64,000 bases of DNA from Candidatus Rokuibacteriota bacterium (lineage in GTDB: Bacteria; Methylomirabilota; Methylomirabilia; Rokubacteriales; CSP1-6), in the NCBI GenBank assembly GCA_003220495.1, contig QHSP01000015.1, positions 196,610 through 260,609 on the forward strand, in the 5' to 3' direction. The notes under the pieces were generated by a model. That model had not been told where the DNA came from, did no database searches, and saw nothing but the letters and a program-made list of their open reading frames with translations. Of the stretch, positions 1 through 41,919 are shown piece after piece. The position numbers and the translations under genes were made by a program. The first letter of the stretch is position 1; every line of letters starts with the position of its first letter.

Positions 1-561
1 GTGCTCCAGATCGACTGTCCCGACCTCGCGATGGGGCGACACCTCGCGTTTCCCGAGCTGAGCAACGCCGAGTTCCTGAAGATCGCCGCGGCCAACATCG
101 AGGCGCTGAATCACGCGCTGCGCGACGTTCCGGCCGACCGCATGCGGCTGCACCTCTGCTGGGGCAACTACGAAGGGCCGCACCACCGCGACATCCCGCT
201 GCGCGAGCTCCTGCCGGTCGCGCTGAGGGCGAAGCCGCAGGCGCTGTCCTTCGAGGGCGCGAACCCGCGCCACGAGCACGAATGGGTCGTGTTCCGCGAG
301 ATTCGTCTGCCCGACGACCGCGTGATCATCCCGGGCGTGCTCGACTCGACGACCAACTTCATCGAGCACCCCGAGCTGGTCGCGCAGCGCCTCGTCCGCT
401 ACGCCGAGATCGTCGGACGCGAGCGGGTGATCGCGGGCACGGATTGCGGCTTTGCGACCTTCGCGCGGTCCGTCAACCAGGTCGAGCCCGAGATCACCTG
501 GGCCAAGTTCAAGGCGATGGCCGAGGGCGCGCGGCTGGCGTCGAAGCAGCTCTGGAAATAG
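1..561 (+). CDS. Cobalamin-independent methionine synthase catalytic-domain-like protein (core-MetE family), 5'-truncated by the window edge
   Basis: C-terminal 186 aa align closely with the paralog at 36879-38048 (RLHLCWG His-x-Cys, NPRHEHEW Glu, GTDCGF Cys zinc-ligand motifs). The ORF runs off the window start. Confidence 0.7.
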   Translation: MLQIDCPDLAMGRHLAFPELSNAEFLKIAAANIEALNHALRDVPADRMRLHLCWGNYEGPHHRDIPLRELLPVALRAKPQALSFEGANPRHEHEWVVFREIRLPDDRVIIPGVLDSTTNFIEHPELVAQRLVRYAEIVGRERVIAGTDCGFATFARSVNQVEPEITWAKFKAMAEGARLASKQLWK

Positions 562-562
562 G

Positions 563-617
563 GCAGTGCGAGCCGCAGGCCGTCGCGGGGCTGGGGCTCC
601 GCCGGCCGAGGCGAGCG
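563..617. repeat. REP-like dispersed imperfect palindrome, copy A (GCAGGCCGTCGCGGGGCTGGGGCTCCGCCGGCCGAGGCG core)
   Basis: The same 45-50 bp element recurs intergenically at 5488, 9078, 11703 and 31541 in both orientations. This copy sits between convergent/tandem genes. Confidence 0.7.
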
Positions 618-653
618 ATATAACGAGGCGAGCGACATAACTGGAGACCCGGC

Positions 654-2399
654 ATGACCCTAGACGAGATCGACGTTCCCCACGCCCTCGTGCACGTCCT
701 CGAGGAGGCCGGCATCCAGTTCGTGTTCGGCATGCCTGGCGGCGACACCGGCCGTATCTTCGACGCGCTCCACGACTCGCGCGAGATCCAGACGATCCTC
801 GTGCGCCACGAGCAGGTCGGCTCGATCATGGCCGAGATGTACGGCCGGCTCACGGGCAAGCCCGGCGTCGTCATGGGCCAGGGGATCTTTCTTGCCTGCA
901 ACGCGCTCTTCGGCGCGCTCGAAGCGGTGAAGGGCGCCTCGCCGATGCTGCTGCTCGGCGACTTCACCGACATGGCGCCCTTCATGCACCACGCGCCCTA
1001 TCAGGCCGGGACCGGCGAGCACGGCAACCACGATCTGAGGAACCTTCTCGCGGGTGCGACCAAGTACACCGCGGCGGTCTCCGAGCCCAAGCAGGCCGTC
1101 CAGACGCTCCAGCTCGCGATCAAGCACGCCACGACGGGCAGCCCCGGACCGGTGGCGGTCATCTTCGGAAGCCGGGCGTTCGGCGCGACCGTGAAGACGC
1201 GCCGGCCACCGCGCCTGCACGCGACCGGGCGCCATCTCGCTCACGGGATCGTTCGGCCGGCGGCCGCGGACGTCGCGCGGGTCGCCGAGGCGCTGCTCGC
1301 CGCCTCGAGCCCGGTGATCATTGCCGGCAACGGCGTCCACGCCTCGCGCGCATGGGCCGAGCTCGCCGAGCTGGCCGATCTCCTCAAGATCCCGGTGGCG
1401 ACGACGGCGTCCGGGAAGAGCGCGATCGCCGACGTCCATCCGCTGGCGCTCGGCGTCTTCGGCAACTGGGGCCAGACCGTTGCCAACGAGGTCGTCTCGG
1501 CCGCCGACACGGTGCTCGTGGTCGGCTCGCGCCTGGCGCCGACCGACACCTGCTTCGAGAACCCGGAGCTGCTCGACGCCGACCGCCAGACATTCTTGCA
1601 GATCGACGTCGAGCCGCTCAACGTCGGCCGTCACTTCCCCGTGAAGGACGCGATCGTCGCCGACGCGCGGGAGGCGCTCGCGGCGCTCGCCGCCGAGCTC
1701 GGGCCGCGGCTCACGCCGGCGCGGAAGACCGCGGGGCAGAGGCGCGTGGAGCATCTGGCCGAGCTCAAGCCCCTCCATCGCTACTTCGCCGAGCCCGAGC
1801 AGCGCTCGGACGCGGTCCCGCTCCGTCCCGAGCGGGTGATCACCGAGCTCGCGCGCCGGCTCGACGCGCGCGCGATCGTCACGATGGACGCAGGAGCCAA
1901 TCGGCTCTACATGACCCACTACTTCCAGTGCAAGGGCGCGGGCACGGTATATCAGCCCTCGTCGATCGGCGGCATGGGATACGCGCTGCCGGCGGCGATG
2001 GGGGCCAAGCTCACGAGCCCGGAGCGCGACTGCGTCGCGGTCTGCGGCGACGGCGGCTTCGCGATGACGATGAACGCGCTCTTCACCGCCGCGCAGTACC
2101 GGATCCCGGTCGTCACCGTCGTGCTGAACAACAGCGTGCTCGGCTGGGTGAAGGACGGACAGCGCCGGCGCGGCAACCGATTCATCGCCTCCGAGCTCGG
2201 CCGCAACGACTATGCGCGGATCGCGCAGGCCATGGGCTGCGTCGGCGTCCGCGTCGAGTCGATCAAGGATCTCGTGGGCGAGCTCGACCGGGTCACGGGC
2301 GCCAAAGAGCCGATCGTCCTCGACGTGGTCACGACGGAGGACGCGCCCTTCTGGCAGGTGCAGTCGCCGCTCGCCAAGGAGGGCCCGGGCGGCGAGTAG
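654..2399 (+). CDS. Thiamine-pyrophosphate-dependent enzyme (acetolactate synthase large subunit-like)
   Basis: 581 aa with three-domain TPP enzyme architecture. GDG(X)n NN-type TPP-binding region (VAVCGDGGFAMTMNALFTA...VLNN). ATG at 654 matches the track. Confidence 0.85.
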   Translation: MTLDEIDVPHALVHVLEEAGIQFVFGMPGGDTGRIFDALHDSREIQTILVRHEQVGSIMAEMYGRLTGKPGVVMGQGIFLACNALFGALEAVKGASPMLLLGDFTDMAPFMHHAPYQAGTGEHGNHDLRNLLAGATKYTAAVSEPKQAVQTLQLAIKHATTGSPGPVAVIFGSRAFGATVKTRRPPRLHATGRHLAHGIVRPAAADVARVAEALLAASSPVIIAGNGVHASRAWAELAELADLLKIPVATTASGKSAIADVHPLALGVFGNWGQTVANEVVSAADTVLVVGSRLAPTDTCFENPELLDADRQTFLQIDVEPLNVGRHFPVKDAIVADAREALAALAAELGPRLTPARKTAGQRRVEHLAELKPLHRYFAEPEQRSDAVPLRPERVITELARRLDARAIVTMDAGANRLYMTHYFQCKGAGTVYQPSSIGGMGYALPAAMGAKLTSPERDCVAVCGDGGFAMTMNALFTAAQYRIPVVTVVLNNSVLGWVKDGQRRRGNRFIASELGRNDYARIAQAMGCVGVRVESIKDLVGELDRVTGAKEPIVLDVVTTEDAPFWQVQSPLAKEGPGGE

Positions 2400-2400: not shown

Positions 2401-2883
2401 ATGCGGCACAAGAAGAAGGACGTCATGGCCCGTACCCGGCGCGAGTACGCCATCCTCGATCGCCTCGTGACCCGGCTGCGGGCCGCCGACTGGAAGCGGC
2501 CAGTGCCGCGCCCGCCGACGCGGGATCCGTGGACCGTGAAGGACGCGCTCGCCCACATCGTCTACTGGAAGGAGCACAGCGCCCGCGTCTTCCGGGGCGA
2601 GCGGCGGCTCCCGGAGATGCGCGGTCTCGACGTGAAGCAGATCAACCGTCTGATCTACCGGCGCTGGCGCCGCCGGCGGCCGGCCGAGGTCGTGGCGTGG
2701 CATCGTCGCGTCCAGCGCGACGTGCGGAAGACGCTCGCGGCGAATCCCCCGGAGTGGTTCTCGCGGCGTCAGCGCTCGCCCAAGTGGCCGGCCGATTTCG
2801 ACGCGCACTCGGCGGACCACCGGAGGGACGACATCGAGGGCGCGCTGGGGCCGGGGCGCATCAAGGGTCGTGGGCACCGGTGA
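2401..2883 (+). CDS. ClbS/DfsB-family (DinB-like) four-helix-bundle protein
   Basis: Carries WTVKDALAHIVYW and a C-terminal H..H motif pattern typical of ClbS/DfsB. The start is uncertain: ATG 2401 directly follows the upstream stop, and an alternative in-frame ATG lies at 2425 with an AAGGA ribosome-binding site. Confidence 0.55.
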   Translation: MRHKKKDVMARTRREYAILDRLVTRLRAADWKRPVPRPPTRDPWTVKDALAHIVYWKEHSARVFRGERRLPEMRGLDVKQINRLIYRRWRRRRPAEVVAWHRRVQRDVRKTLAANPPEWFSRRQRSPKWPADFDAHSADHRRDDIEGALGPGRIKGRGHR

Positions 2884-2913: not shown

Positions 2914-4572
2914 TCATCCCAGGCCGCCGCGCAGCCCGAGCACGCGCGCGACGAGGGCGCCGGCCAGCGAGATGACCATGATGATGCACGCGACGACCAT
3001 CGCCTCCTCGAACTTCCGCTGGGCGATGAAATCGAGCTGCAGGATCGACAGCGGGCGATTGGCGCTGGTGGCGAGCAGCGCGATGTTGCCGATGTTCCGC
3101 GCCGCGCCGACGAACGTGATCATGCCCACCGCCACCAGGGTCGGCGCCATCAGCCGCAGCACGATGCGCCGGTAGGTCGCCCACCACGACGCGCCGGCGA
3201 CGCGCGAGGCTTCCTCGAGATCGCCGCCGAGCTGCAGCAGCCCGCCCTTCACGATCTGCACGCCGAGCGGCATGCCCGAAATCAAGCCGGCGATGATCAG
3301 CACCGCCATCGTGCCGTACAGCGGCCGCAGCACGGCCACGTCGAGGAACAGCCACAGGAGCGCCAGCCCGAGGATCACGCCCGGCACCGTGAAGGGAAGC
3401 CAGGAGACGACGTCGAGCGCCCGGCGGCCGCGGAAGCGCGTGCGCACGACGATGTAGGCGATCAGGGAGTGGACGAGGACCGCCGCGACCGCGGTGCCGG
3501 TCGCCAGCACGACCGTGTTCCAGAGTGAGCGCAGGAAGAGGTCGTCGGCGAGGACGGTCGTCCAGTTCTTGAGCGTCCACGGGTCGGGGATGTTGAAGAA
3601 GCCGAAGAGCTTCATGAACGTGCCGAGCACGGCGAAAGCCAGCGGCACCCCGAGCACGACGAGCGTCAGCGCGAGCGCCAGGGCGAACGCGGGCCAGCGC
3701 CAGCGTCCGAGCCGGTGGCGCCGGCTCTGGAACTGGCCGGTGATCGTCGTGTAGCGGCGGCCGCGCGTGAGCCACTGCTGGGTGAAGATCAGCGGGAGCA
3801 TCGCCGCCAGCACGAGCACCGCCAGCGCGGTCGCCGCGTCGTAGCGCGGCACGCGCGTCACGACGAGGTCGTAGATCATCGTGCTGAACACGAAGAACCG
3901 GAACGGCGCTCCCAGCACCTGCTCCACCTCGAAGGTCTGCAGCGACACCATCGTGCCGAGCAGGAGCACCGACAGTACGACCGGCGCCATGACCGGGATC
4001 GTGATCGAGAGCGCGGTCCGCGCGGTGCCGGCGCCCGCGACGCGCGAAGCCTCCTCGAAGGCCGCGTTCATGTTGCGCAAGGCCGGGGTCAGCAAGATCA
4101 CCTTGACCGTCAGCGATCCGGTGATGACGTGGATCCACACGATGCCCCAGAACGAGTAGATGTCGAACGGCCCCTTGCCGACCAGGCCGAGGCCGACGAG
4201 CCCGGTGTTGAGCAGGCCGTAGTCGGGATCGAGCAGCAGGATCCAGCTCAACGTGACGGTGAGGGTCGGCAGAAAGAACGCCGCCCAGAAGGCGAACTCG
4301 ATCCAGTTGCGGCCCGGCAGATCGGTCCGCGCGATCAGCCAGGCGACCAGCAGCGCCAGCGCGAGCGACAGAACCTGGCGGGCCACGGTGACCTTCAGCG
4401 TGTTGAGGAGCGCCGCGCGCAGGAGCGGCTCGGCGAACGCGGCGCGCCAGCCATCCAGCCCGTAGCGCGCGGGCTGCCCGGGCGGCGCCACCTGGAAGCT
4501 TTCCAGCACCACCAGGAGCAAGGGGTAGACGACGCAGAACGCCACGGCCAGCAGGACCACCGTGCAGGCCAC
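2914..4572 (-). CDS. ABC transporter permease, fused two-domain type (FbpB/iron(III)- or polyamine-type)
   Basis: 552 aa with about 12 predicted TM segments and two EAA-like loops (EEASRVAGAG... twice). Last gene of the minus-strand operon. Confidence 0.8.
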   Translation of the reverse strand: MACTVVLLAVAFCVVYPLLLVVLESFQVAPPGQPARYGLDGWRAAFAEPLLRAALLNTLKVTVARQVLSLALALLVAWLIARTDLPGRNWIEFAFWAAFFLPTLTVTLSWILLLDPDYGLLNTGLVGLGLVGKGPFDIYSFWGIVWIHVITGSLTVKVILLTPALRNMNAAFEEASRVAGAGTARTALSITIPVMAPVVLSVLLLGTMVSLQTFEVEQVLGAPFRFFVFSTMIYDLVVTRVPRYDAATALAVLVLAAMLPLIFTQQWLTRGRRYTTITGQFQSRRHRLGRWRWPAFALALALTLVVLGVPLAFAVLGTFMKLFGFFNIPDPWTLKNWTTVLADDLFLRSLWNTVVLATGTAVAAVLVHSLIAYIVVRTRFRGRRALDVVSWLPFTVPGVILGLALLWLFLDVAVLRPLYGTMAVLIIAGLISGMPLGVQIVKGGLLQLGGDLEEASRVAGASWWATYRRIVLRLMAPTLVAVGMITFVGAARNIGNIALLATSANRPLSILQLDFIAQRKFEEAMVVACIIMVISLAGALVARVLGLRGGLG

Positions 4573-4622: not shown

Positions 4623-5465
4623 TCAGTGCATCACGCCGCCGCCGGTCACGTTGATGGACTGACCGGTGATGTACTCGGCGGCATCACCCGCCAGGAACGC
4701 GGCGACTTCGGCCACGTCGCTCGGTCTGGCGATCCGGCCGAGCGGCGTCGACGCGGCGGTCTGCCCGATCCGCTCCTCGCGCTGCCGCTGGTCGAAGCTC
4801 CCGTCCGGCCGCAGCCCCATGTGATCTAGGCGCTCCGTCTCGGCCGCGCTCGGGCAGATCGCGTTGACCGTGATCCCCGCGGGCGCCAGCTCTTGCGCCA
4901 GGGACTGCGTGAAGCCGATGATCCCGAACTTCGACGCGCAGTACGCCGCGCGGAGCGCGCCGCCCTTCTTGCCCCACTGCGACGACATGCTGATGATGCG
5001 CCCGCGCACGCGACGTTCGAGCATCGAGCGCGCGACGGCCTGCGAGGTGATGAACGTCCCCTTGAGGTTGGTGTCGAGGACGGTATCCCACTGGTCTTCC
5101 GGCAGCTCGACGACCGGCGTCTTGTCGAGACTGCCCGGCGCGCCCGCGTTGTTCACGAGGATGTCGATGCGCCCGAACTCGCCCAGGGCCTCCGCGACCA
5201 CCTTCGTCATCTCGCTGGTCGATCGGACGTCGGCGAGCGCGGTCATCGCCCGGCGCCCGCGCTTCCTGATCTCGTCCGCGACCGCTTCGATGCCACCCCA
5301 GGCGCCCGGCGTCAACACGGGCGACACGCGTAGCCCGGTCGAAATCACATCCGTCAGGATGAGATCGGCGCCTTCGTCGGCGAACCGCCGGGCGATGGCT
5401 CGACCGAGCCCGTGCTCACCGCCCGCACCCGTCACCATCGCGATCTTGCCGTCGAGCCGTCCCAT
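4623..5465 (-). CDS. SDR-family oxidoreductase
   Basis: TGAGGEHGLG Rossmann motif, NNAG, and catalytic S...Y..AS K pattern (YCASKFG). Confidence 0.85.
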   Translation of the reverse strand: MGRLDGKIAMVTGAGGEHGLGRAIARRFADEGADLILTDVISTGLRVSPVLTPGAWGGIEAVADEIRKRGRRAMTALADVRSTSEMTKVVAEALGEFGRIDILVNNAGAPGSLDKTPVVELPEDQWDTVLDTNLKGTFITSQAVARSMLERRVRGRIISMSSQWGKKGGALRAAYCASKFGIIGFTQSLAQELAPAGITVNAICPSAAETERLDHMGLRPDGSFDQRQREERIGQTAASTPLGRIARPSDVAEVAAFLAGDAAEYITGQSINVTGGGVMH

Positions 5466-5540: not shown

Positions 5541-6653
5541 TCACCCGGCCGTGACGCCAGCGGCCAGGAAGCGATCCGGGCGGAACGGCGCCAGGGTGGG
5601 GCTGGGCTTGTCGCGAACGATCTCATCCGCCAGCAGGCGGCCGAGCAGCGGGCCCAGCGTGATCCCGCTGTGGGTCGCGATCAGCCAGCCGTTGGCGAGG
5701 CCAGGGATCCGACCGGCGATCGTGTGTCGGTCGCCCGGCATGGGGCGCACGCCGATGCGGCTGTCGACGATCCGGAGCGGGCGCGCCGCGGGAAACACGC
5801 GCCCCGCCCGCTCGAGCAGCAGCGCCGACAGCGACGCGGGCGAGCCCGAGTTCGCCGCGAGCGTGTCGACGTCCTCGGCCCCGAGCAAGAGTCCGCCGCC
5901 GGCGTCGGGCCGGAGGTGGAGCCCCGGCGCGTGCACGACCCGGCCGAGCGCCACTGCCGGGCGGGAGGTGACCGCCAGTAAGCCGGGTACGCGGCCGACC
6001 GGGATGACCACGCCGAGCGGCTCGAGGAACGCTTGCGTGGCCGGGCCGACACAGACGAGGAACGAGCGCGCGGTCACCTCGTCGTCGTCGACGACGAGGG
6101 CCTCGATTCGATCACCGCGCATGCGGAGCGATCGGACCGCCTTGCCGTCTCTCACTTCAGCGCCACGCGCCGAGGCGGCAGCAAGAAGGCGTCCGATCAG
6201 TCGCGGGGCGTCGAGCCACGCGTCGGCGGCAAAGAACGCGACGTCGCGGACCTGGTCGGGGATGGCGAGGCCGGGCTCGAGCTCGGTCGCGCGCTCGCGG
6301 CTGATCCAGTCAGCCGGGTAGCCCCGGCTCGCGAGCCGATGGACGCGCTCGCGGAGCTCTCGCTCCGCGTCGCTATCGTCCGCCCACTCGAGCGAGCCCC
6401 CCTCGTGATAGCCGGCGTCGCCGCCGAGCTCGCGCGACAGGTCCCGGTGAGCGGTCATCCCGGCCGCATTGAGCCGATGGTAGACATCGGGCTCCTTCCT
6501 GACCGAGTTCAGCCATGCGAACGAGCTGCCGCTCGTCCCCCCGCCGGGCGTGCCGGCATCGAGCGCCAGCACGCGGGCACCCGCCCACGCGACCGCGTAG
6601 ACGGCCGAAGCGCCCACGATCCCGAGTCCGACGACCGCAACGTCGCATTTCAT
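5541..6653 (-). CDS. FAD-dependent oxidoreductase (DadA / glycine or sarcosine oxidase-beta-like)
   Basis: N-terminal DVAVVGLGIVGASAVYAV dinucleotide-binding motif. 370 aa, the typical size for this class. Confidence 0.8.
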   Translation of the reverse strand: MKCDVAVVGLGIVGASAVYAVAWAGARVLALDAGTPGGGTSGSSFAWLNSVRKEPDVYHRLNAAGMTAHRDLSRELGGDAGYHEGGSLEWADDSDAERELRERVHRLASRGYPADWISRERATELEPGLAIPDQVRDVAFFAADAWLDAPRLIGRLLAAASARGAEVRDGKAVRSLRMRGDRIEALVVDDDEVTARSFLVCVGPATQAFLEPLGVVIPVGRVPGLLAVTSRPAVALGRVVHAPGLHLRPDAGGGLLLGAEDVDTLAANSGSPASLSALLLERAGRVFPAARPLRIVDSRIGVRPMPGDRHTIAGRIPGLANGWLIATHSGITLGPLLGRLLADEIVRDKPSPTLAPFRPDRFLAAGVTAG

Positions 6654-6741: not shown

Positions 6742-7851
6742 TCACGCCGGCCACACGCTGACCACGTCGGGAGGGAAGTGGAGCTGAAGCTGCTGGCCCT
6801 CGCGCCAGTCGCCTCCGCGTGCCAGGAAGAGCAGGATGCGCTGCTCCTCGCTCAGCGCCACGCGGGCCTCGTACCTGTCGCCCACGAACAGGAGCGCCTC
6901 GATCACGCCGACGAGCGTGTGGCCACGCGCCGCCGGCCGATCGTTCGATCCGACCTCGATGTCTTCGGGCCGAACCGCGACGTGCGCCGGAGCTCCCTCG
7001 GAGAGGCTCGCGCCCGGCGCGATGCGTCCTGCCAATGTCTGGCCGGCGAGCGATCCATCCAGCGCGATCGCGACCGTCTGGCTCTCCGCGCGATCGACCC
7101 GCCCTTTCAAGATCACGGTCTGGCCGAGGAAGTCGCGGACGAAGGCCGACGCGGGCTGCTCGTAGAGGCTCCGCGGGGAGCCGATCTGCTCGGCGCGCCC
7201 ACGGGACATGACGGCGATCCGATTGGACAGGCTGAGCGCCTCGATCTGGTCGTGCGTGACGAAGAGCACGGTGATGCCGAGCCGCCGCTGCAGGAGCTTC
7301 AGCTCGACCCGCATCTGCTCCCGCAGCTTGGCGTCGAGGTTGCTGAACGGCTCGTCGAGCAGCAGCAGGTCGGGCTCGTACACGAGCGCGCGGCAGAGCG
7401 CCAGGCGCTGCATCTGGCCGCCGCTCAGGAGCGTAGCCGACCGGCGCTCGAGCCCGCCGAGCCCGACCAGCTCGAGCACCTTGGCCACGCGATCACGCAT
7501 GGCCTGTCCCCTTACGCCGCGGAGCTTCAACGGGTAGGCAACGTTCTCGAAGACGCTCATGTGCGGCCAGATCGCGTAGGACTGGAAGACCATGCCGAGG
7601 TTGCGCTTGTGCGGAGGCACGAAGAGCCGGCGCGCGACCGACGCGACGAGCCGGCCGCGCAGGGTGATCTCGCCGCCGTCGGGATCCTCCAGTCCGGCCA
7701 CCAGGCGCAAGGTGGTGGTCTTGCCGCAACCGCTCGGGCCCAGCAACGTGAACACTTCGCCCCGGTCGACCTCGAGGGACGCGCCGTCGACCGCCTGGAC
7801 CGTGCCGTACGATTTGCTGACGCCGTCGAGCCGAAGGACCGTGTCGCTCAT
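6742..7851 (-). CDS. ABC transporter ATP-binding protein (PotA/FbpC-like, with C-terminal TOBE-like domain)
   Basis: Walker A GPSGCGKTT, signature LSGGQMQR, Walker B LLLLDEP. The true start MSDTVLRLDG was recomputed to 7851. The track ORF is extended upstream by Arg-rich read-through. Confidence 0.85.
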   Translation of the reverse strand: MSDTVLRLDGVSKSYGTVQAVDGASLEVDRGEVFTLLGPSGCGKTTTLRLVAGLEDPDGGEITLRGRLVASVARRLFVPPHKRNLGMVFQSYAIWPHMSVFENVAYPLKLRGVRGQAMRDRVAKVLELVGLGGLERRSATLLSGGQMQRLALCRALVYEPDLLLLDEPFSNLDAKLREQMRVELKLLQRRLGITVLFVTHDQIEALSLSNRIAVMSRGRAEQIGSPRSLYEQPASAFVRDFLGQTVILKGRVDRAESQTVAIALDGSLAGQTLAGRIAPGASLSEGAPAHVAVRPEDIEVGSNDRPAARGHTLVGVIEALLFVGDRYEARVALSEEQRILLFLARGGDWREGQQLQLHFPPDVVSVWPA

Positions 7852-7871: not shown

Positions 7872-9017
7872 TCAGCGGCCCCAGAGCCGCCGCGTGGCCA
7901 GTCGCGCGCCTTCCACGAGCGCCTCGAACTTCGCCCACGCGATCCGGGGGTGGCCGACTCGCGGCCCGAGGCCGCAGTCCGTGCCCGCGATCACGTTCTC
8001 TCTCCCAACCAGCTCGGCGTACCTGACGAGACGCTCGGCGACGAGCTCTGGATGCTCGACGAAATCGCTGGCGTGGCCGACCACGCCGGGGATGAGGATC
8101 TTGCCGTCCGGCAGCTTCACGCTCTCCCACACGCGCCACTCGTGCTCGTGGCGCGGGTTGGACGCCTCGATCGAGTAGGCCTGCGCCCGGACCGCCAGGA
8201 CCAGGTCGACGAGATCACGCAGCGGCAGGTCGTGCTTGTGCGGTCCGTGGTAGCTCCCCCAGCAGACGTGAAAGCGCACACGCTCCGGCGGGATGTCGCG
8301 TAGCGCGTGGTTGAGGGCTTCGATGCGCAGCGCGGCGAACTTCCGGTACTGCGCAAGTGTCAGCGTCGGGTGGATCTGCCAGGCGTCGGCGAGATCGGGA
8401 TCGTCGATCTGAAGGAGGAAGCCGGCGCGAACGATCGCGTCGTATTCGACCTTCATCGCCTCGGCGATCGCGGCGAGGTACGCCTCGTCGCTCGGGTAGT
8501 GAGCGTTGCGCAGCCAGTGCTCGATGGTGCCGGGCGCCACCGCCGGCAGGAACGCCTCGGTCACCGAATGACCGGCCAGCGCCGCCTTGAAGTTGGCGCT
8601 GTCCGTCTCGACGGCCGCCTGTCCGATGTAGCTGAGGGGCGCCTTGCAGACGGCCTCGCGGCCGGCCATGTTGCCGCGCCCCGCGAAGTACTCCGGGAAT
8701 TCCAGGGCGTCCCGGCCGTAGATCATCGCAAGGACACGCTCGCCCTCGGCGAGCGCACGCTCTTCGACCCCGCCGAGGCGCTCGCGCGCGTAGGTCGTGA
8801 AGTTGCGCTTCGATTCCTCGCCGTCGTTGACGATATCCAGGCCGACGGCGACCTGCTGCCTGACGACCTCGGCGACGGCGCGTCGAACGCGACTGGCGAA
8901 GGCGGCGTGATCGTAGGGGCGGCCGGTGTCCCGGGCGATCAGCAGGTCGCGCAGATCGTCGGGCCGCGCCAGGCTTCCGGCGTGCGTCGTCAGGATGCGC
9001 TCGGTACTGCGTTTCAC
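7872..9017 (-). CDS. Core-MetE family protein (cobalamin-independent methionine synthase catalytic-domain-like, zinc type)
   Basis: 381 aa. THAGSLARP N-terminus, RFHVCWG, NPRHEHEWRVWE and GTDCGL zinc/homocysteine-site motifs. GTG start. First gene of the minus operon. Confidence 0.8.
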   Translation of the reverse strand: MKRSTERILTTHAGSLARPDDLRDLLIARDTGRPYDHAAFASRVRRAVAEVVRQQVAVGLDIVNDGEESKRNFTTYARERLGGVEERALAEGERVLAMIYGRDALEFPEYFAGRGNMAGREAVCKAPLSYIGQAAVETDSANFKAALAGHSVTEAFLPAVAPGTIEHWLRNAHYPSDEAYLAAIAEAMKVEYDAIVRAGFLLQIDDPDLADAWQIHPTLTLAQYRKFAALRIEALNHALRDIPPERVRFHVCWGSYHGPHKHDLPLRDLVDLVLAVRAQAYSIEASNPRHEHEWRVWESVKLPDGKILIPGVVGHASDFVEHPELVAERLVRYAELVGRENVIAGTDCGLGPRVGHPRIAWAKFEALVEGARLATRRLWGR

Positions 9018-9077
9018 CGTTCGCGTAAGATAGTCGCGCCCGGGGGCCTGGTCAATCGAGCGAGCGCCCTCGATGGT

Positions 9078-9130
9078 TGTGCGCGCTGCAGACTGTCGCG
9101 GGGCTGGGGCCCCGCCGGTCGAGGCGCGCC
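9078..9130. repeat. REP-like element copy C
   Basis: GCGCGCTGCAGACTGTCGCGGGGCTGGGGCCCCGCCGGTCGAGGCGCGCC in the divergent intergenic region. It is read through in-frame by the over-extended track ORF 9077. Confidence 0.7.
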
Positions 9131-9151
9131 TCCAGAACAGGAGGATTCATC

Positions 9152-11693: not shown

Positions 11694-11702
11694 GGTCTAT
11701 GG

Positions 11703-11750
11703 GCGCGCCGCGGCCGGCGGGCCCAGCCCCGCGACGGCCTGCCGCGCGCA
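11703..11750. repeat. REP-like element copy D (reverse orientation, 1-bp deletion variant)
   Basis: GCGCGCCGCGGCCGGCGGGCCCAGCCCCGCGACGGCCTGCCGCGCGCA, lying between the MFS start and the cyclase gene. Confidence 0.65.
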
Positions 11751-11799
11751 TCACATTATCAGCGCTGAGGCTCGCGCGCTTGGCGTAAGATTGCCGGCC

Positions 11800-29776: not shown

Positions 29777-29809
29777 CGAAGCCCGGGCGCACTCGCCGCG
29801 GCCGCGGCA

Positions 29810-35237: not shown

Positions 35238-36872
35238 ATGGCCGGATCTCTCAATCGTCGAGCCTTCTTGACGCGCGCCGGAACGGCAGCCGCCGCGGTC
35301 ATGAGCGGACCGTTCGTCCGTACATCGCGCGTCACCGCGGCATCCGGCGACCGCCTGGTGGTGGCGCTCGGTCAGTGGGGCACGGAGACACCGTTCGCCT
35401 GGCGATCGACCCAGGGTGAAAAACCGTTGTGGGACTGCGTCTACGATCCGCTCATCATGCGCGATCCGAAGACCTTCGAGTACCGTCCCGGGTTGGCCAC
35501 GGAGTGGAAGCCGTCGAACGAGATGCGAACGTGGACGTTCAAGCTGCGGTCGGGGATCAAGTTCCACGAGGGCTGGGGCGACCTGACCGCGCAGGACGTC
35601 AAGTTCACGGTCGAGCAGAACCTCAAGCCCGACTCGGGCGGTGGCTCGGCGCCGTTCTTCCGCTTGAACCTCGATCGGATCGAAACGCCGGACAAGCTCA
35701 CGGTGGTCATGCATTTCAAGAACCGGGTCTGGGAGGTCGCCTCCAACTTCACTCAGTTCGTCGGCTACCAGAACGTCGTCCCGAAGAAATATCTTGAGAC
35801 GGTCGGCGAGGAGAAGGCGGCCCTGCACCCGATCGGCACCGGCCCGTACCGGCACGTCGAGGGGCGCCAGGGCGACTACCATCGCTTCGAGGCCGTCAGC
35901 AATCACTGGCGAAAGCCGCCAGGCTTCAAGGAGCTGATCATTCGTCGGGTTGCCGACCCGGCGACACGCGTGTCGGGGCTCCGAGCCGGCGAAATCGACA
36001 TCGGCGTGGTCTTCGGCGACTATCTCGACCAGGCGGTGAAGTCGGGGCTCCGCCTGCACGACGCGACCAACTCCGCCTGCTACTGGGTCATCCTGAGCGG
36101 CCAGACGACACCGGACCGCGAGGACTACTGCCCGACGTGTCCGTGGGCGGGTGATCCCAACGACCCGAAGAGTCGAGAGAATGCGAAGAAGGTGCGGCTG
36201 GCGCTGAACCTCGCCGTCAACAAGAAGGCGATCATCAGCGGGCTCTGGAAAGGGAAGGGCTCCGAGACGCCGTTCTCGTACTATTACTACCCCTTCCACA
36301 AGGGCTATAGCTCCGACTGGAAAATTCCCCCCTACGATCCCGAGCGCGCGAAGAAGCTCCTCGCCGAAGCGGGGCACGCTGGCGGGTTCGAGGTGCGCGT
36401 GAACCCCACGGTCATGGTCTACGCGCTCGACGGCCCGGACGTGATGGAAGCCGTCGCGCTCGACTGGGAGAAGGTCGGAATCAGGCCCAAGCGCTTCCCG
36501 GAGATGATCAGCACCTTCGGCCCCAAGAGCCGCAACCGGAAGACGAACAAGACGCACTGGGTCTACGGCTCGCCGCCGTTCGACGAGCCGATCCTGGCCT
36601 GGAGCCGCGTCCTGCACTCGAAGGGCACCTTCAACCTGCTGTGCGACGGTCAATACGACGAGGACATCGAGACGGCGATGCGGGAGTTCGACGCCGACAA
36701 GCGCGCCCGACTGACGCAGGCGCTGGGGCAGAAGCTCTACGACGCGCATCACGGAGTCATGCTGGGCATGAAGTCGATCACGTGGGCGCTGAGCCGGCAG
36801 GTCGGAAGCTGGCAGTCGCTCGCCTACGTGCCCCTCGAGAACAACTACGAGTACATCGCCCCGGCGAGCTAG
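35238..36872 (+). CDS. ABC transporter substrate-binding protein, family 5, Tat signal (paralog of 29880)
   Basis: NRRAFLTRAGTAAAAVMSG signal. GGAGG ribosome-binding site. 544 aa. Confidence 0.85.
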   Translation: MAGSLNRRAFLTRAGTAAAAVMSGPFVRTSRVTAASGDRLVVALGQWGTETPFAWRSTQGEKPLWDCVYDPLIMRDPKTFEYRPGLATEWKPSNEMRTWTFKLRSGIKFHEGWGDLTAQDVKFTVEQNLKPDSGGGSAPFFRLNLDRIETPDKLTVVMHFKNRVWEVASNFTQFVGYQNVVPKKYLETVGEEKAALHPIGTGPYRHVEGRQGDYHRFEAVSNHWRKPPGFKELIIRRVADPATRVSGLRAGEIDIGVVFGDYLDQAVKSGLRLHDATNSACYWVILSGQTTPDREDYCPTCPWAGDPNDPKSRENAKKVRLALNLAVNKKAIISGLWKGKGSETPFSYYYYPFHKGYSSDWKIPPYDPERAKKLLAEAGHAGGFEVRVNPTVMVYALDGPDVMEAVALDWEKVGIRPKRFPEMISTFGPKSRNRKTNKTHWVYGSPPFDEPILAWSRVLHSKGTFNLLCDGQYDEDIETAMREFDADKRARLTQALGQKLYDAHHGVMLGMKSITWALSRQVGSWQSLAYVPLENNYEYIAPAS

Positions 36873-36878: not shown

Positions 36879-38048
36879 ATGCACCGGAGCACCGACCGCT
36901 TCCTGACGACCCACGCCGGAAGCCTGCCGCGCCCGGGTGACCTGCTCGAGCTGATCCAGGCCAAGGCGACCGGCCGCCCCTACGATCAAGAGGCCTTCGC
37001 CGCCCGGGTGAGACAGGCGGTCGGAGAGATCGTCGGCAAGCAGACCGAACTCGGCGTCGACGTCGTCGATGACGGCGAGATGGGCAAGCCCGGCTTCATT
37101 CCGTACGTCAACGAGCGCCTGTCCGGCTTCGAGCCCGACCCGGCAGGCCGGGTCAGCCCGTGGAGCGGCTCGCGCGAAGTGCGAGCGTTCCCCGAGTTCT
37201 ACGAGTGGTTCTCGCGTGCGATGCCGAGCCCAGCCGTACGGTCGTTGCACATGGTGTGCACGGGCCCGATCGTCTACACGGGCGCGAAGCACGTCCAGAC
37301 CGATATCGAGAACCTCAAGGCGTCCCTGGCCGGAAGCGGCGCCCGGGAAGCCTTCATCCCGGCGATCTCGCCCACGAGCATCGAGGACTGGCAGCGGAAC
37401 GCCTACTACAAGACCGAGGAGGAATACCTCGCCGCGATCGCCGAGGCGATGCACGAGGAGTACAAGGCCATCGTCGATGCGGGATTCCTCGTGCAGATCG
37501 ACGATCCCCACCTGGCGACCCACTACGTGTCCCGGCCCGAGCTCAGCGTCGATCAGGTCCGTCGCTGGGCCGAAGTGCGCGTGGAGGCGCTCAACCATGC
37601 GCTGCGCGGGCTGCCGCGCGATCGCATCCGCTGGCACACGTGCTACGGCATCAACATCGGCCCGCGCGTTCACGACCTGGAGCTCAAGCACTTCGTCGAC
37701 GTGATCCTAAAAATCCGGGCCGGCGCCTACTCGTTCGAAGCCGCGAACCCGCGGCACGAGCACGAGTGGCGCGTGTGGGAGCAGGTGAAGCTTCCGGAAG
37801 GCGCCATCTTGATCCCGGGCACGATCACGCAGTCGACCGTCCTCGTCGAGCATCCGGAGCTGGTGGCCGATCGCATCGGCCGGTTCGCGCGGGTGGTCGG
37901 ACGCGAGAACGTCATCGCGGGCGCCGACTGCGGCTTTGCGACGTTCGCCGGCTCGACCGAAATCCACCCGAGCGTCGTCTGGGCCAAGTTCGCGGCGCTC
38001 GTCGAAGGGGCCCGCCTCGCGACCAGGCAGCTGTGGGGCCGGAGCTGA
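36879..38048 (+). CDS. Core-MetE family protein (cobalamin-independent methionine synthase catalytic-domain-like, zinc type)
   Basis: 389 aa. THAGSLPRP, RWHTCYG, NPRHEHEWRVWE, GADCGF. Starts 7 bp after the SBP stop. Confidence 0.8.
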   Translation: MHRSTDRFLTTHAGSLPRPGDLLELIQAKATGRPYDQEAFAARVRQAVGEIVGKQTELGVDVVDDGEMGKPGFIPYVNERLSGFEPDPAGRVSPWSGSREVRAFPEFYEWFSRAMPSPAVRSLHMVCTGPIVYTGAKHVQTDIENLKASLAGSGAREAFIPAISPTSIEDWQRNAYYKTEEEYLAAIAEAMHEEYKAIVDAGFLVQIDDPHLATHYVSRPELSVDQVRRWAEVRVEALNHALRGLPRDRIRWHTCYGINIGPRVHDLELKHFVDVILKIRAGAYSFEAANPRHEHEWRVWEQVKLPEGAILIPGTITQSTVLVEHPELVADRIGRFARVVGRENVIAGADCGFATFAGSTEIHPSVVWAKFAALVEGARLATRQLWGRS

Positions 38049-38097: not shown

Positions 38098-39018
38098 ATG
38101 CAGCGCTTCATCATCGGACGGGTGATCCAGTCGATCGTGTCGATGTTCGTCGTATCGGTCGTGGTCTTCGCGCTCGTGCGGCTCTCCGGCGACCCGATCC
38201 AGATCATGATGCCCGCCGAGGCGTCGAAGGCGGACATCGAGCTCATGCGCGCGCACCTCGGCCTGGATCGCCCGTGGAGCGTCCAGTACTGGCGCTTCCT
38301 GACCCAGGCGCTCCAGGGAGACTTCGGACGGTCCGTCCGATTCCGCCGTCCCGCGCTCGATCTGGTCGCCGAGCGGTACGGAGCCACGCTCGAGCTCGGC
38401 GGCCTGGCCGTGCTCATCGTGATCGTCGTGGCGCTCCCGGTCGGCGTGTACTCCGCTGTCCGACGCGGCAGCGCGCTCGACTACACCGCGCGGGCCTTCG
38501 CGGCGCTCGGCCAGGCGGTGCCGCCGTTCTGGCTCGGCCTGGTGCTCGTCCTCATCTTCGGCGTCATGCTCCACCTGCTGCCGACGTCCGGGCGCGGCAC
38601 GCCGCTCCACGTGCTCTTGCCGGGTATCACGCTCGGCTGGTTCGCCGTCGCCGGGCTCATGCGGCTCACGCGCTCGTCGATGCTCGACGTCCTCGGCAGC
38701 GAGTACGTCAAGCTCGCGCGGATCAAGGGATTACCGGAGCGCCGGGTGATCTGGCGCCACGCGTTCAAGAACGCCGCGCTGCCGGTGGTGACGTTCGCGG
38801 CGCTCCTGTTCGTGGCGCTCTTGAACGGCTCGATCATCGTGGAGACGGTATTCGGCTGGCCGGGCCTCGGCCTGCTGGTGATCGAGGCGGTCGACTCGCG
38901 CGATTATCCGATCGTGCAGACCGTCGTCCTGTTTCTGTCCGCGATGTACATCGGCGTCAACCTGATCGTCGACGTGCTCTACGCGTACCTCAATCCAAAG
39001 ATCAGGTACTCGCGATGA
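38098..39018 (+). CDS. ABC transporter permease (DppB-like)
   Basis: 306 aa, 6 TM, EAA loop (ARIKGLPER). Confidence 0.85.
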   Translation: MQRFIIGRVIQSIVSMFVVSVVVFALVRLSGDPIQIMMPAEASKADIELMRAHLGLDRPWSVQYWRFLTQALQGDFGRSVRFRRPALDLVAERYGATLELGGLAVLIVIVVALPVGVYSAVRRGSALDYTARAFAALGQAVPPFWLGLVLVLIFGVMLHLLPTSGRGTPLHVLLPGITLGWFAVAGLMRLTRSSMLDVLGSEYVKLARIKGLPERRVIWRHAFKNAALPVVTFAALLFVALLNGSIIVETVFGWPGLGLLVIEAVDSRDYPIVQTVVLFLSAMYIGVNLIVDVLYAYLNPKIRYSR

Positions 39019-39893
39019 GCGGCGCCGCCACGACCGGCGCCGCGATCCTGCCGCGCGGCGGCCGCGAGCGCCGCTGGCCGCCGGCGGTGCCGCTCGCGGT
39101 CGTGGCCGCGCTGGTCCTGTGCGCGCTCCTGGCGCCCGTGCTGGCGCCGCACTCGCCGGTCGAGGGATCGCTCGGCGAGCGGCTCGCGCCGCCGATCGGC
39201 CTCGAGGGCTCCAGGCCCGGCCACCTCCTCGGCACCGACCGTCACGGCCGCGACACCCTGAGCCGGCTGCTCTACGGCGCCCGGATCTCGCTGGCGGTCT
39301 CGGTCGTCGGCATCACCCTGACGGGCGCGGCGGGAAGTCTCATCGGTCTGCTCGCGGGGTTCTTCGGGGGCTGGGTCGACACCTTGCTCATGCGGCTGGC
39401 CGACATCTCGCTGTCGCTGCCGGGCATCCTGATCGCCGTGCTGCTGTCGGTGGTCTTCGAGCCATCGTTCACGAACGTGATCATCGTCGTAGTGTTCCTG
39501 CTGTGGCCGAGCTACGCCCGGCTCACCCGCGGCGAGACGCTCGGCATCAAGCAGCAGGAGTTCGTCGCGCTGGCGCGGGTCGCCGGCTGCTCGAGCACGA
39601 GGATCATGTTCCGCCACGTCGCGCCGAACCTGGCGCCGTCGATCCTCGTGCTCGCCACCTTGCACGTCGGCTACGTCATCGTGCTCGAGGCCGCGCTCTC
39701 GTTCCTGGGCGTCGGCATCCCGCCGCCCACGCCGTCGTGGGGCGTGATGGTGGCCGACGGTCGGGGCCTGATCGAGCAAGCGTGGTGGGTGTCGATCCTG
39801 CCGGGCATCGCGATCCTGGTCACGGTGCTCTCCCTGAACATCCTCGGCGACTGGGTTCGCGACCGTCTCGATCCCAAGCTCCGACAGGTCTGA
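39015..39893 (+). CDS. ABC transporter permease (DppC-like)
   Basis: 292 aa. ATGA start/stop overlap with the upstream permease. Confidence 0.85.
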   Translation: MSGAATTGAAILPRGGRERRWPPAVPLAVVAALVLCALLAPVLAPHSPVEGSLGERLAPPIGLEGSRPGHLLGTDRHGRDTLSRLLYGARISLAVSVVGITLTGAAGSLIGLLAGFFGGWVDTLLMRLADISLSLPGILIAVLLSVVFEPSFTNVIIVVVFLLWPSYARLTRGETLGIKQQEFVALARVAGCSSTRIMFRHVAPNLAPSILVLATLHVGYVIVLEAALSFLGVGIPPPTPSWGVMVADGRGLIEQAWWVSILPGIAILVTVLSLNILGDWVRDRLDPKLRQV

Positions 39894-39900
39894 GCCGCCC

Positions 39901-41919
39901 ATGGCCGATCCGCTCCTGGAGGTGCGGGACCTCCGCACCTACATCTACACCCGTCGCGGCGTCGTGAAGGCGGTCGACGGCGCGACCTTCTCCGTGCGCC
40001 GCGGCGAGACGCTCGGAATCGTCGGCGAGTCGGGCTCGGGCAAGTCGATGACGTGTCTGTCGATCCTGCGCCTCGTGCCCGAGCCGGGCGGACGCATCGT
40101 CGGCGGCCAGATCCTCTTCGACGGGGAGAATCTGCTCGACAAGACCCCCGAGGAGATGCGCCGGCTGCGCGGCTCGCGCATCGCGATGATCCTGCAGGAT
40201 CCGATGGCCTCGCTCAACCCCGCGATGACCGTGGGCGAGCAGATCGCCGAGACGCTCTCGCTCCATCGCGGGCTGCGGGGCCGCGCCCTCGACGAGCGCG
40301 TGGTGGAGCTCCTGCGTCAGGTGCGGGTCAGCGACCCGGAGCGGCGCGTGCACGCCTATCCGCACCAGATGAGCGGCGGCATCCGCCAGCGCGTCGCCGG
40401 CGCCATCGCGATCTCCTGCCAGCCGAGCCTCCTGATCGCCGACGAGCCGACGACCTCGCTCGACGTCACGATCCAGTCGCAGTACCTGCGGCTCCTGAAG
40501 GAGATCCAGCGCGAGACGAATCTTGCCCTCGTCTTCGTCACGCACGACCTCGGCATCGTCGCCAAGCTCTGCGATCGCGTCGCGGTGATGTACGCCGGCC
40601 GCATCGTCGAGCTTGGAAAAACCCGCGACATCTTCAACCGCCCACGCCACCCGTATGCGGTCGGGCTCCTCGATTGCCTGCCGACCTTGCGCCGCGGGCG
40701 CGAGCCGCTGACCGCCATCGAGGGGCAGCCGCCGGATCTCGCGAACGTGCCGGCCGGCTGCAGCTTCGCGCCGCGCTGCCCGATGGCGCAGGCGCGGTGC
40801 ACCGAGACGCCGCCACCCCTGGAGCCGGTCGACGCCGAGCATCTGGTGGCCTGCCTTCGGGCCGGCGAGACGGCGACCCTGGGTCGCCGCGTGGTCGCGA
40901 TCTCCTCGGGCTCGCCAGCGGTGCTCGCCGGGGCGAACGGCGCCCGCGACATCGTTCTCGAGGCCCGCCAGCTCACCAAGCACTTTCCCCTGGCGCGTGG
41001 CACGATCCTGAGCCGGCGCTTCGGCACGGTGAAGGCGGTCGACGGTGTCGACTTCGTCCTGCGCCGCGGTGAGACGCTCGGCCTGGTCGGTGAGAGCGGG
41101 TGCGGGAAAACCACGACCGCCAGGCTCGTCCTGTCTCTCGAGCGGCCGACCGCGGGCGGCGTGTACTTCCACGGCCACGACATCCACGTGCTCGGCCGCC
41201 ACGCGCGGGGCAGCTATCGCCGAGCGGTGCAGGCCGTCTTCCAGGACCCGTTCAGCTCGCTGAACCCTCGGCTGACGATCCGCACCACGGTGAGCGAGCC
41301 CCTCACCCAGACCGAGCCCGATCTCACGCGCGCGGAGGTCGCGGAGCGTGTCGCCGCGTCGCTCACCCGCGTGGGGTTGAGGCCACGGATCGCCGACGAT
41401 TATCCCCACGAGCTCTCGGGAGGCCAGCGCCAGCGCGTCGCGATCGCGCGCGCGCTGAGCACGAATCCGGAGTGCATCCTGCTGGACGAGGCGGTCTCGG
41501 CGCTCGACGTCTCGATCCGCGCCCAGGTGATGAACCTCCTGCGCGAGATCCAGGATCGCTCGGGCGTGAGCTATCTCTTCATCGCTCACGATCTCGCCGT
41601 CGTGAAGTACGTCAGCACGCGGATTGGCGTGATGTACCTCGGCAAGCTCGTCGAGACCGCAGCCGCCGACGAGCTCTACGCGAACCCGCTCCATCCGTAC
41701 ACGCAAATCTTATTGAACAACGCGCTGCCCGCGCATCCCGACGACGCGCGCGACGAGGTCATCCTCAAGGGCGAGGTGCCGAGCGCCTTCAATCCTCCGT
41801 CGGGCTGTCGCTTCCATCCGCGCTGCCCGCAGGCGCTGCCGGTCTGCGGCGAGGTCGAGCCGACCTTACGCGACCAGGCGAGGGGCCACCAGGTCGCGTG
41901 TCATCTCTACGGAGCCTGA
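39901..41919 (+). CDS. ABC transporter ATP-binding protein, fused tandem ATPase (DppD-DppF-like)
   Basis: 672 aa with two complete nucleotide-binding domains (GESGSGKS / GESGCGKTT Walker A, two LSGGQRQR signatures). Confidence 0.9.

Follow-up and report, generated by a model that had tools for sequence, protein, structure and literature searches.

Why would a bacterium keep several short relatives of methionine synthase close together, each next to genes of a solute importer? A stretch of 64,000 nucleotides from Candidatus Rokuibacteriota bacterium (contig QHSP01000015.1, positions 196,610 to 260,609; G+C ~69%)—the window in the following—raises this question. Contigs from soil metagenomes match this DNA. 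It carries four genes for MetE-like proteins, M1 to M4, all of which adjoin genes for solute-binding proteins (SBPs), with intergenic gaps of 3–59 bp. Our tentative answer, and the one we lean to, is that the four encode single-barrel, folate-independent zinc thiol alkyltransferases—homocysteine S-methyl- or S-alkyltransferases—of the MetE catalytic-domain superfamily, which are often recruited to uptake operons.

Four short MetE-like proteins in two clades

All four proteins belong to PF01717 (Meth_synt_2) and score above its gathering threshold of 21 bits, with 23.8 bits for M1, 41.1 for M2, 101.2 for M3, and 52.7 for M4:

1–561, plus strand: M1, short MetE-like protein of the M4 clade, C-terminal 186 aa (PF01717; 51–57% identity to M4 and M2)
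7872–9017, minus strand: M2, short MetE-like protein of the M4 clade, 381 aa (PF01717; 56% identity to M4)
13853–14923, plus strand: M3, MesD-like short MetE-like protein, 356 aa (PF01717 at 101 bits; match to 3RPD)
36879–38048, plus strand: M4, the clade reference, 389 aa (Pfam; AlphaFold2 model; MetE fold matches)

M1 is partial in the window; a longer public contig (L099) holds the whole gene, which encodes 379 aa. The other three are NCBI proteins PYN38380.1 (M2), PYN38385.1 (M3), and PYN38402.1 (M4), labelled 'methionine synthase' or 'MetE', on a 267-kb contig. A first-pass annotation of this DNA had announced five paralogs in its title. Neither tblastn with each paralog nor two profile hidden Markov models detected a fifth copy among all six-frame open reading frames (ORFs) of the window—the runner-up showing E > 1—and this count is therefore wrong. 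Its description of the proteins as MetE catalytic barrels devoid of the N-terminal domain is, on the contrary, borne out by the PF01717 matches, by the absence of a Meth_synt_1 barrel in Pfam searches (M3 gives a weak cross-hit only), and by the fold of M4 described below.

Placing the proteins among the established types proves less straightforward, and all four lie far below every NCBIfam equivalog cut-off. Full-length MetE, modelled by TIGR01371 / PRK05222, is a two-barrel protein of ~750 aa as compared to 356–389 aa here, and TIGR01371 yields 20–79 bits against a cut-off of 930. PRK00957, which probes for MesA/MesB/MesC, gives 18–88 bits against 258, and PRK06233 (YxjG/YxjH-type) 22–47 bits against 576, with E = 1e-3 to the structure 1ypx. 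PRK04326, taken as the nearest archaeal short-MetE model, gives 33–211 bits against 406; it stood in here for the split-MetE criterion of Price et al., which is at least 200 bits to P. furiosus MetE (PMC7857596). A profile search of the window revealed no second PF01717/PF08267-like ORF as a split-MetE partner. Pfam scans of the window genes detect no corrinoid protein—hence neither MtrA nor CoFeSP, the corrinoid partners of MesA/B/C—and no MesX, MetH, or full-length MetE.

The four proteins had been taken as one paralog family. By sequence, they rather fall into two clades: M1, M2, and M4 belong together with mutual identities of 51–57% (M2–M4 56%), whereas M3 stands apart at only ~25%. M3 matches MesD (ACIAD3523, PDB 3RPD) over its full length with 36% identity (E = 4e-59, 204 bits), and its best NCBIfam model is PRK09121 with 239.5 bits against a cut-off of 392; M1, M2, and M4 reach 33–56 bits. 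M3 also keeps the homocysteine contacts Ser22/Glu73/Asp188 plus the MesD-specific Tyr226 (MesD numbering), a position at which M1, M2, and M4 bear Asn, Ser, and Ile. Price et al. set the MesD family threshold at 390 bits or more to ACIAD3523 and describe MesD as a core methionine synthase that depends on O2 and on MesX (DUF1852) as its obligatory partner (PMC7857596). A DUF1852/MesX gene (PF08908) is found neither among the scanned window genes nor beside five relatives of M3. With its score below the PRK09121 cut-off and no MesX gene nearby, a MesD/MesX system was rejected for M3, which is therefore a MesD-like sister and not a MesD. The M1/M2/M4 clade would represent a fifth 'core' MetE-like family beside MesA–D, with M3 placed in the MesD sister group.

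The M4 clade is large, and databases label it only as 'methionine synthase II family'. A search of 1.84 billion representatives with M4 returns 1,127 clusters at 50% identity (E ≤ 1e-30), and a genome scan yields at least 577 confirmed loci. The best 80 of these come from Rokubacteria/Methylomirabilota, Alpha-, Beta-, and Deltaproteobacteria, Binatia, Planctomycetes, Verrucomicrobia, Chloroflexi, and Actinobacteria, and plasmids of Pantoea, Rhodococcus, Dietzia, Ruegeria, sphingomonads, and many haloarchaea bear homologues with 35–47% identity. Price et al., who define MesA–D and split MetE, call the function of other homologues unclear (PMC7857596). Paralog expansion is seen here, with three clade copies in 38 kb of the window, and in locus L038, with three in 4.5 kb (8001–12463). 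More generally, the alphaproteobacterial metagenome-assembled genomes (MAGs) behind L025, L066, and L038 carry two or three M4-clade paralogs within 2–4.5 kb as a local tandem expansion. The 90%-identity cluster of M4 itself (589 members) also takes in upstream SBP_bac_5 proteins, and a database protein of 505 aa (P0058) fuses M4 to downstream permease domains; fused gene calls—of the latter type or across the 6-bp gap between the SBP gene and M4—probably bridge this cluster as a clustering artefact.

The zinc site and a probable second pocket

For a comparison of the catalytic residues, M3, MesD, and T. maritima MetE were aligned to 80 members of the M4 clade. H253, C255, E287, and C351, the zinc ligands of M4, are invariant in all 80 clade members, are also present in M1 and M3, and align with His618/Cys620/Glu642/Cys704 of T. 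maritima MetE. The motifs RWHTCYG, EHEW (within HEHEW), and DCGF, in which the first-pass annotation had recognized a zinc/homocysteine site, thus hold these ligands, and none of them is lost. The homocysteine contacts E67 and D208 of M4 are likewise invariant in the 80 members, and S15 is invariant in a separate 32-sequence alignment. All seven positions are found in M2, M3, and M4, in M1 as far as its visible part extends, and in seven plasmid homologues from bacteria and haloarchaea at 38–47% identity. The same seven positions—HCEC zinc ligands plus S/E/D contacts—were used by Price et al. to predict methionine-synthase function for MesA–D (PMC7857596). As the Ser/Glu/Asp triad is strictly conserved, the thiol is probably homocysteine-like.

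The folate site tells a different story. In T. maritima MetE, the C-terminal barrel contacts folate by Glu583, Trp539, Arg493, and Arg496 (PMC539065). The pterin-anchoring Glu583 is replaced by T in M4, D in M2, M in M1, and A in M3, and by T or S in most clade members; Arg496 turns into Pro and Arg493 is variable, so that neither is conserved. Trp539 is retained in M2 and M4, but only in 41 of the 80 clade members. As judged from the alignment, the folate contacts are lost from the C-barrel while the zinc/homocysteine site is kept. Since both the pterin-anchoring residue and the N-terminal barrel are lacking, use of methyl-folate in the manner of MetE is unlikely. This agrees with the earlier proposal that methyl-tetrahydrofolate is not used directly, for which the loss of Glu583 and Arg493/Arg496 speaks.

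Instead, the M1/M2/M4 clade bears an invariant set of its own: Y76, R80, F159, N174, Y177, E194, Y195, R251, N290, H293, H295, E296, H325, and K370. The resulting signature R-x-H-x-C / N-x-R-H-x-H-E / E-H persists in bacterial and archaeal members at identities as low as 38%, and M2 carries all of its residues. R80, F159, Y195, R251, H293, H295, and H325 are clade-specific, i.e., absent from M3, MesD, and MetE. For a structural view, the fold test was run on an AlphaFold2 model of M4 alone (pLDDT 81.7, pTM 0.88). Foldseek against the PDB retrieves the MetE C-barrel of T. maritima with a TM-score of 0.74, MesD with 0.68, and 1ypx with 0.66, followed by UROD. In the topology of this model, R251, H253, and C255 share one strand, and N290–E296 come after the E287 strand at the catalytic barrel mouth. 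Placed by barrel topology in this manner, Arg80, Arg251, His293, His295, Glu296, and His325 most likely line a second pocket in the M4 clade. BHMT and MmuM are only remote fold matches of the M4 model (TM 0.38–0.42, E = 1e-4 to 1e-5), and Pfam finds no PF02574 (S-methyl_trans) domain in the four proteins; the suggested BHMT-type kinship hence reduces to structural analogy.

The mechanism that we consider most likely combines these elements. Zinc, held by His-x-Cys, Glu, and Cys, would activate the thiol of L-homocysteine, whose amino and carboxyl groups the conserved Ser, Glu, and Asp would grip. As a thiolate, it would then attack the methyl—or another alkyl—group of a donor that is neither folate nor corrinoid and that would be seated in the second pocket (in the M4 clade Arg80, Arg251, His293, His295, Glu296, His325). 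In this Rokubacterium, such enzymes would have been recruited to uptake and catabolic operons, and the donor, or its precursor, would probably be the solute imported by the adjacent ATP-binding cassette (ABC) system. Three parts of this scheme are inferred, namely that the thiol is homocysteine, that a methyl group is transferred, and that an imported solute is the donor.

The importer link in relatives and in the window

The neighbourhood of the gene was analyzed in 78 related genomic loci with our own gene calls. An SBP gene occupies the position directly upstream (−1) in 20 of 76 loci (26%), compared with 32 of 528 (6%) at offsets 3–7 (Fisher odds ratio 5.5, p = 4.8e-7). Sixteen of these 20 SBP genes share the strand of the enzyme gene, and for 12 the gap is at most 100 bp, in several cases just 6–8 bp; gaps of 6–11 bp are seen for M4, M1, L005–L007, L010, L012, and L049. 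By Pfam, the upstream genes encode TctC (8), NMT1 (6), SBP_bac_5 (3), Peripla_BP_6 (2), and SBP_bac_1 (1) proteins, and no recurrent non-SBP family appears at −1 in the 78 loci. At position +1, TctC (6), Amidohydro_2 (4), isochorismatase (4), and polysaccharide deacetylase (3) are found. The SBP type follows the enzyme tree (permutation p = 0.007) with several separate SBP-linked subclades, which partly reflects inherited synteny.

The importer link is facultative. The Dpp-type operon of M4 is conserved just in its nearest orthologues (L005–L007, 84–85% identity) and the arrangement of M3 in L089/L090 (80% identity). The transporter linkage proposed earlier thus stands as an enrichment of SBP genes at −1, and its Dpp-type form does not extend beyond orthologues of 80–85% identity, being absent at 70–73%. 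Paralog expansion, catabolic contexts, and the upstream SBP enrichment together argue for an accessory, often substrate-linked role rather than a single housekeeping synthase.

Within the window, the neighbourhoods that the first-pass annotation described for M2, M3, and M4 are correct by Pfam; it gave none for M1. Here, an SBP_bac_5 gene lies 11 bp upstream (6964–8757 of L099), and a gene for a thiamine pyrophosphate (TPP) enzyme, then a DinB-like gene, follow downstream:

654–2399, plus strand: TPP-dependent, acetolactate-synthase-like enzyme below cut-off (TPP_enzyme_N/M/C; best NCBIfam 321 against 538 bits)
2401–2883, plus strand: small DinB/MDMPI_N-like protein, encoded last in the M1 operon (called and matched to Pfam on L099)

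On another contig (L100, 7675–8736), a luciferase-like monooxygenase gene stands directly upstream of M1, where other contigs have SBP_bac_5; this difference to L099 is either strain-level variation or misassembly.

M2 is the first gene of a minus-strand operon, followed by a PotA/PhnT2-like ATPase, a ThiO-like DAO flavoprotein, a short-chain dehydrogenase/reductase (SDR), and a fused PhnU2-like permease, with an SBP gene divergent from M2 at 59 bp:

2914–4572, minus strand: fused two-domain ABC permease, nearest to the PhnU2 type (BPD_transp_1; TIGR03262 151.8 against 593 bits)
4623–5465, minus strand: SDR oxidoreductase of the M2 operon (adh_short)
5541–6653, minus strand: DAO-family flavin adenine dinucleotide (FAD) oxidoreductase, ThiO/glycine-oxidase-like (PF01266; TIGR02352 96 against 251 bits, below threshold)
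6742–7851, minus strand: PotA/PhnT2-like ABC ATPase with TOBE domain, M2 operon (ABC_tran and TOBE_2, NCBIfam; start codon chosen)
9077–10261, plus strand: divergent SBP_bac_1/8/11 protein, distant from iron-binding SBPs (Pfam; best PDB E = 8e-8)

The M3 operon runs from a PF04199 cyclase and an MR/MLE enzyme over a 3-bp gap to M3 and, 45 bp further, to SBP_bac_5 and two permeases:

11536–12747, plus strand: putative cyclase (PF04199), a metal hydrolase that opens the M3 operon (Pfam)
12614–13849, plus strand: MR/MLE enolase-superfamily protein of the acid-sugar dehydratase/cycloisomerase group (Pfam; true start probably ~12760)
14969–16738, plus strand: SBP_bac_5, 45 bp past M3 (Pfam; order conserved in L089/L090)
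16757–17713, plus strand: DppB-type permease, M3 operon (Pfam)
17721–18599, plus strand: DppC-type permease, M3 operon (Pfam)

The MR/MLE protein matches PDB 2ovl with 474 bits and 3,6-anhydro-L-galactonate cycloisomerase with 335 bits, and reaches 259 of the 500 bits of the NCBIfam talarate/galactarate dehydratase model. A betaine/proline-betaine pathway with this protein as a betaine epimerase was considered for the M3 operon and rejected, as the protein is of the acid-sugar dehydratase/cycloisomerase type. After the operon, a 4'-phosphopantetheinyl transferase is encoded at 18614–19309 on the minus strand; L089/L090 insert a PP-binding carrier protein and an AMP-binding enzyme in between (10760–13053), which hints at a small carrier-protein-dependent pathway beside the M3 transporter.

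M4, finally, sits 6 bp behind an SBP_bac_5 gene and 49 bp ahead of DppB, DppC, and a fused DppDF:

35238–36872, plus strand: SBP_bac_5, ending 6 bp ahead of M4 (Pfam; public gene call on L001)
38098–39018, plus strand: DppB-type permease, M4 operon (Pfam)
39015–39893, plus strand: DppC-type permease, M4 operon (translation; gene call with BPD_transp_1)
39901–41919, plus strand: fused double ABC ATPase of the DppD-DppF type (two ABC_tran and two oligo_HPY domains, Pfam)

Positions 21287–29800 are syntenic with L104 (GCA_003220435.1), another Rokubacteria MAG, comprising peptidase S15, molybdenum (Mo) hydroxylase, FAA hydrolase, lactamase_B, cupredoxin, and then FTR1. In L104, the M4 orthologue comes directly after this block, so that the 29.8–36.9 kb part of the window (SBP5, SBP5, a PMT_2 glycosyltransferase, SBP5) together with DppBCDF marks an insertion/deletion difference. 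Elsewhere, the window holds three xanthine-dehydrogenase/CoxL-type Mo hydroxylase large subunits and a Urate_ox_N gene (23695–25998, minus; 43537–45855, minus; 58170–60512, plus; 63489–63998, plus)—a region that looks like an N-heterocycle/aromatic catabolic island—as well as UbiD, polysaccharide deacetylase, class-V aminotransferase, amidohydrolase, and NMT1-type SBP genes.

None of the partner enzymes in the four operons attains its NCBIfam cut-off, and the SBP matches in PDB and NCBIfam are too distant, so that the binding proteins give no substrate hint. None of those adjacent to the four genes is of the betaine/choline type (OpuAC/ProX), which lends no support to the imported methylated osmolytes that had been suggested.

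Homologues in cultured organisms—among them PAT9B_RS25980 of Pantoea At-9b, U9J23_RS26165 of Rhodococcus PD04, BSY17_RS02070 of Sphingobium RAC03, and D1823_RS18800 of Ruegeria AD91A—add further contexts. In Ruegeria, the gene is clustered with those for ester cyclases, a methyltransferase using S-adenosylmethionine (SAM), a cupin, a hydrolase, and RraA; in Pantoea, it lies alongside flavin reductase, ABM monooxygenase, and NTF2 genes; and in Sphingobium, it is flanked by a gene for hydroxycinnamoyl-CoA hydratase/lyase on one side and by one for NTF2 on the other. Despite the hydratase/lyase neighbour, no link to aromatic O-demethylation was found in the literature. On plasmids of Dietzia and Rhodococcus NJ-530 (L095/L096), the homologue heads an operon with a 2-oxoglutarate (2OG)-Fe(II) oxygenase, a YaaH-type transporter, a PhyH-family dioxygenase, and an HD-domain protein. 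The latter pairing is, as we take it, reminiscent of the oxidative aminophosphonate pathways PhnY/PhnZ or TmpA/TmpB. A phosphonate lead based on these PhyH/HD genes and on the PhnT2/U2-like transporter of M2, itself below threshold, was dropped, as neither is a recurrent trait of the 78 loci.

A plasmid of Rhodococcus PD04 bears the one clear tie of the clade to methionine metabolism: a cobalamin riboswitch (78.5 bits) and metE, with the clade homologue 29 bp downstream of metE. This locus (L086) comprises two cobalamin riboswitches, at 1410–1543 (minus) and 4323–4507 (plus); one is that ahead of metE and the homologue, and the other precedes an operon of an ABC binding protein and an 'iron' permease, which is probably for cobalamin uptake. 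Rfam detects no riboswitches in 20 other genomic loci; just the Rhodococcus plasmid has them. Housekeeping regulation was likewise discarded, as neither the window nor these 20 loci show a SAM or B12 riboswitch in Rfam. In a deltaproteobacterial locus (L082), a group II intron (domains D1–D4, Rfam) lies at 6199–6345 on the minus strand, near an M2-like gene.

Competing readings and known systems

Several observations weigh against importer-recruited alkyltransferases. A literature search turned up no characterized member of the M4 clade, whose reaction is deduced from conserved residues alone, and a knockout of a 'Mes-like' protein in Phaeobacter—not assigned to the M4 clade—is without DMSP (dimethylsulfoniopropionate)-related phenotype (PMC12366255). 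Among the related loci, 64% have no adjacent SBP gene, and the window itself is rich in these, with at least seven among ~55 genes. Orthologues of 70–73% identity, on contigs related to Burkholderiales MAG proteins, lie in an rpsF-ssb-rpsR-rplI-dnaB / RNase R neighbourhood with no transporter, and in the other Rokubacterium the orthologue at the syntenic site after lactamase_B, cupredoxin, and FTR1 comes with no SBP5/Dpp genes. The adjacent SBP families offer no consistent pointer to methylated osmolytes, and the partner enzymes diverge among an acid-sugar-type MR/MLE, a ThiO-like flavoprotein, an SDR, and a TPP enzyme. Lastly, the second pocket appears invariant across these very different contexts, to which one common co-substrate would fit better than many imported donors. 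A shared co-substrate feature is therefore favoured over the freely 'donor-specific' paralogs of the first-pass annotation, whose 'donor-specific thiol methyltransferases for imported methylated osmolytes' are a reasonable hypothesis—unproven and too specific.

In a competing view, the M4 clade would itself be a family of genuine methionine synthases, the fifth of its kind and alternative or back-up in role. Its members would share one intracellular methyl donor or partner that is not imported, and the SBP neighbours would be incidental or regulatory. The Burkholderiales orthologues in their conserved housekeeping neighbourhood, the transporter-free syntenic Rokubacterial orthologue, the order of cobalamin riboswitch, metE, and homologue in Rhodococcus PD04, the second-pocket residues invariant to 38% identity, and the retention of all seven functional residues of the type used by Price et al. 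argue for this possibility. We nevertheless regard it as rather unlikely: three paralogs share 38 kb and multi-copy loci occur elsewhere, no SAM/B12 riboswitch is found in the window or the 20 other loci, SBP genes are significantly enriched directly upstream—often 6–8 bp away—in cultured hosts the gene is found in catabolic or secondary-metabolic surroundings, and Rhodococcus already carries metE next to its copy. In a bolder reading, the M4 clade might consist of widespread cofactor-free demethylases or alkyl scavengers, each subclade taking a methyl or alkyl group directly from the solute of its own binding protein onto homocysteine. Candidate donors would be O-, N-, or S-methylated carboxylates, methoxy-aromatics, methylated aminophosphonates, and sulfonium compounds; in this pointed form, we consider the idea doubtful.

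The zinc thiolate might also serve another purpose than making methionine, by coupling homocysteine, or a different amino-acid thiol, to imported electrophiles (for instance epoxides, lactones, or activated esters), or by processing an imported thiol or thioether amino acid. Epoxyalkane:CoM transferase (EaCoMT), a MetE homologue, catalyses a reaction of this kind. The superfamily and zinc site, the catabolic operons with MR/MLE, cyclase, SDR, DAO, and TPP enzymes, and the hydrolases downstream in relatives (Amidohydro_2, isochorismatase, polysaccharide deacetylase) are in line with this. However, the homocysteine-holding triad is strictly conserved and no recurrent partner enzyme in the 78 loci points to a particular electrophile, which makes this option quite improbable. 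A mere by-product of SBP gene density in Rokubacterial and alphaproteobacterial genomes, with no functional tie, we hold to be very unlikely. Bug/TctC genes are indeed highly expanded in Alpha- and Betaproteobacteria, at least seven SBP genes crowd the 64 kb, and the linkage is gone in the 70–73% orthologues; yet the related loci themselves give a background of 6% for each position as opposed to 26% at −1 (p = 4.8e-7), the 6–11 bp gaps recur in M4, M1, and six relatives, and M4 sits between the SBP and permease genes of one operon, as conserved in L005–L007.

What is at stake is more than a label. About 1,000 sequence clusters from soil, marine, and haloarchaeal sources are now called 'methionine synthase' or '5-methyltetrahydropteroyltriglutamate--homocysteine methyltransferase', which inflates metagenome predictions of B12-independent methionine synthesis. 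If these proteins methylate homocysteine from new donors, methylated compounds of the environment would gain direct entry to the methionine/SAM cycle, and the proteins would represent a fifth 'core' family beside MesA–D, whose own donors are still unresolved. Should they be cofactor-free demethylases, they would link the catabolism of methylated compounds to the supply of methionine while dispensing with folate, cobalamin, oxygenases, and SAM. The conserved SBP–enzyme pairs provide an experimental handle, as the ligand of the SBP would probably reveal the substrate of the enzyme. The M1/M2/M4 clade is hence a good target for biochemistry, for which we do not claim categorical newness.

How, then, do the window proteins relate to known systems? 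With the MetE C-terminal barrel (PF01717) they share the fold (TM 0.74), the four zinc ligands, and the Ser/Glu/Asp homocysteine contacts, at 23–27% identity; they differ from MetE by the absent N-terminal barrel and the loss of Glu583 and Arg493/Arg496, and the M4 clade adds a ~25-residue insertion after strand 2 and its own N-x-R-H-x-H-E after the Glu ligand. MesA, MesB, and MesC—corrinoid-dependent core-MetE proteins of anaerobes—are alike in their single catalytic barrel, their zinc and homocysteine site, and in not using folate. The M4 clade, on the other side, is hosted by haloarchaea and by bacteria from soil and sea in which neither Wood–Ljungdahl nor corrinoid genes flank the gene, and scores far below the cut-offs of the short-synthase models. 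MesD shares only 24% identity with M1, M2, and M4, in which Tyr226 is absent; M3 differs from MesD by being embedded in an MR/MLE–SBP5–permease operon without MesX.

Two further systems are instructive for their function. EaCoMT is a short, MetE-like zinc alkyltransferase that acts in catabolism and not in methionine synthesis; compared by description, it uses coenzyme M (CoM), a thiol devoid of an amino-acid moiety, while the triad that binds such a moiety is retained in the window proteins. MmuM and BHMT (PF02574) resemble the window proteins in their TIM barrel and in the zinc-thiolate activation of homocysteine. They belong to another Pfam family with a remote fold match, making this an analogy of function and not of membership. 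The mmuP-mmuM operon of E. coli couples a transporter to a homocysteine S-methyltransferase, and the direct use of imported S- or N-methyl donors by MmuM and BHMT sets a precedent for an importer-linked homocysteine methyltransferase.

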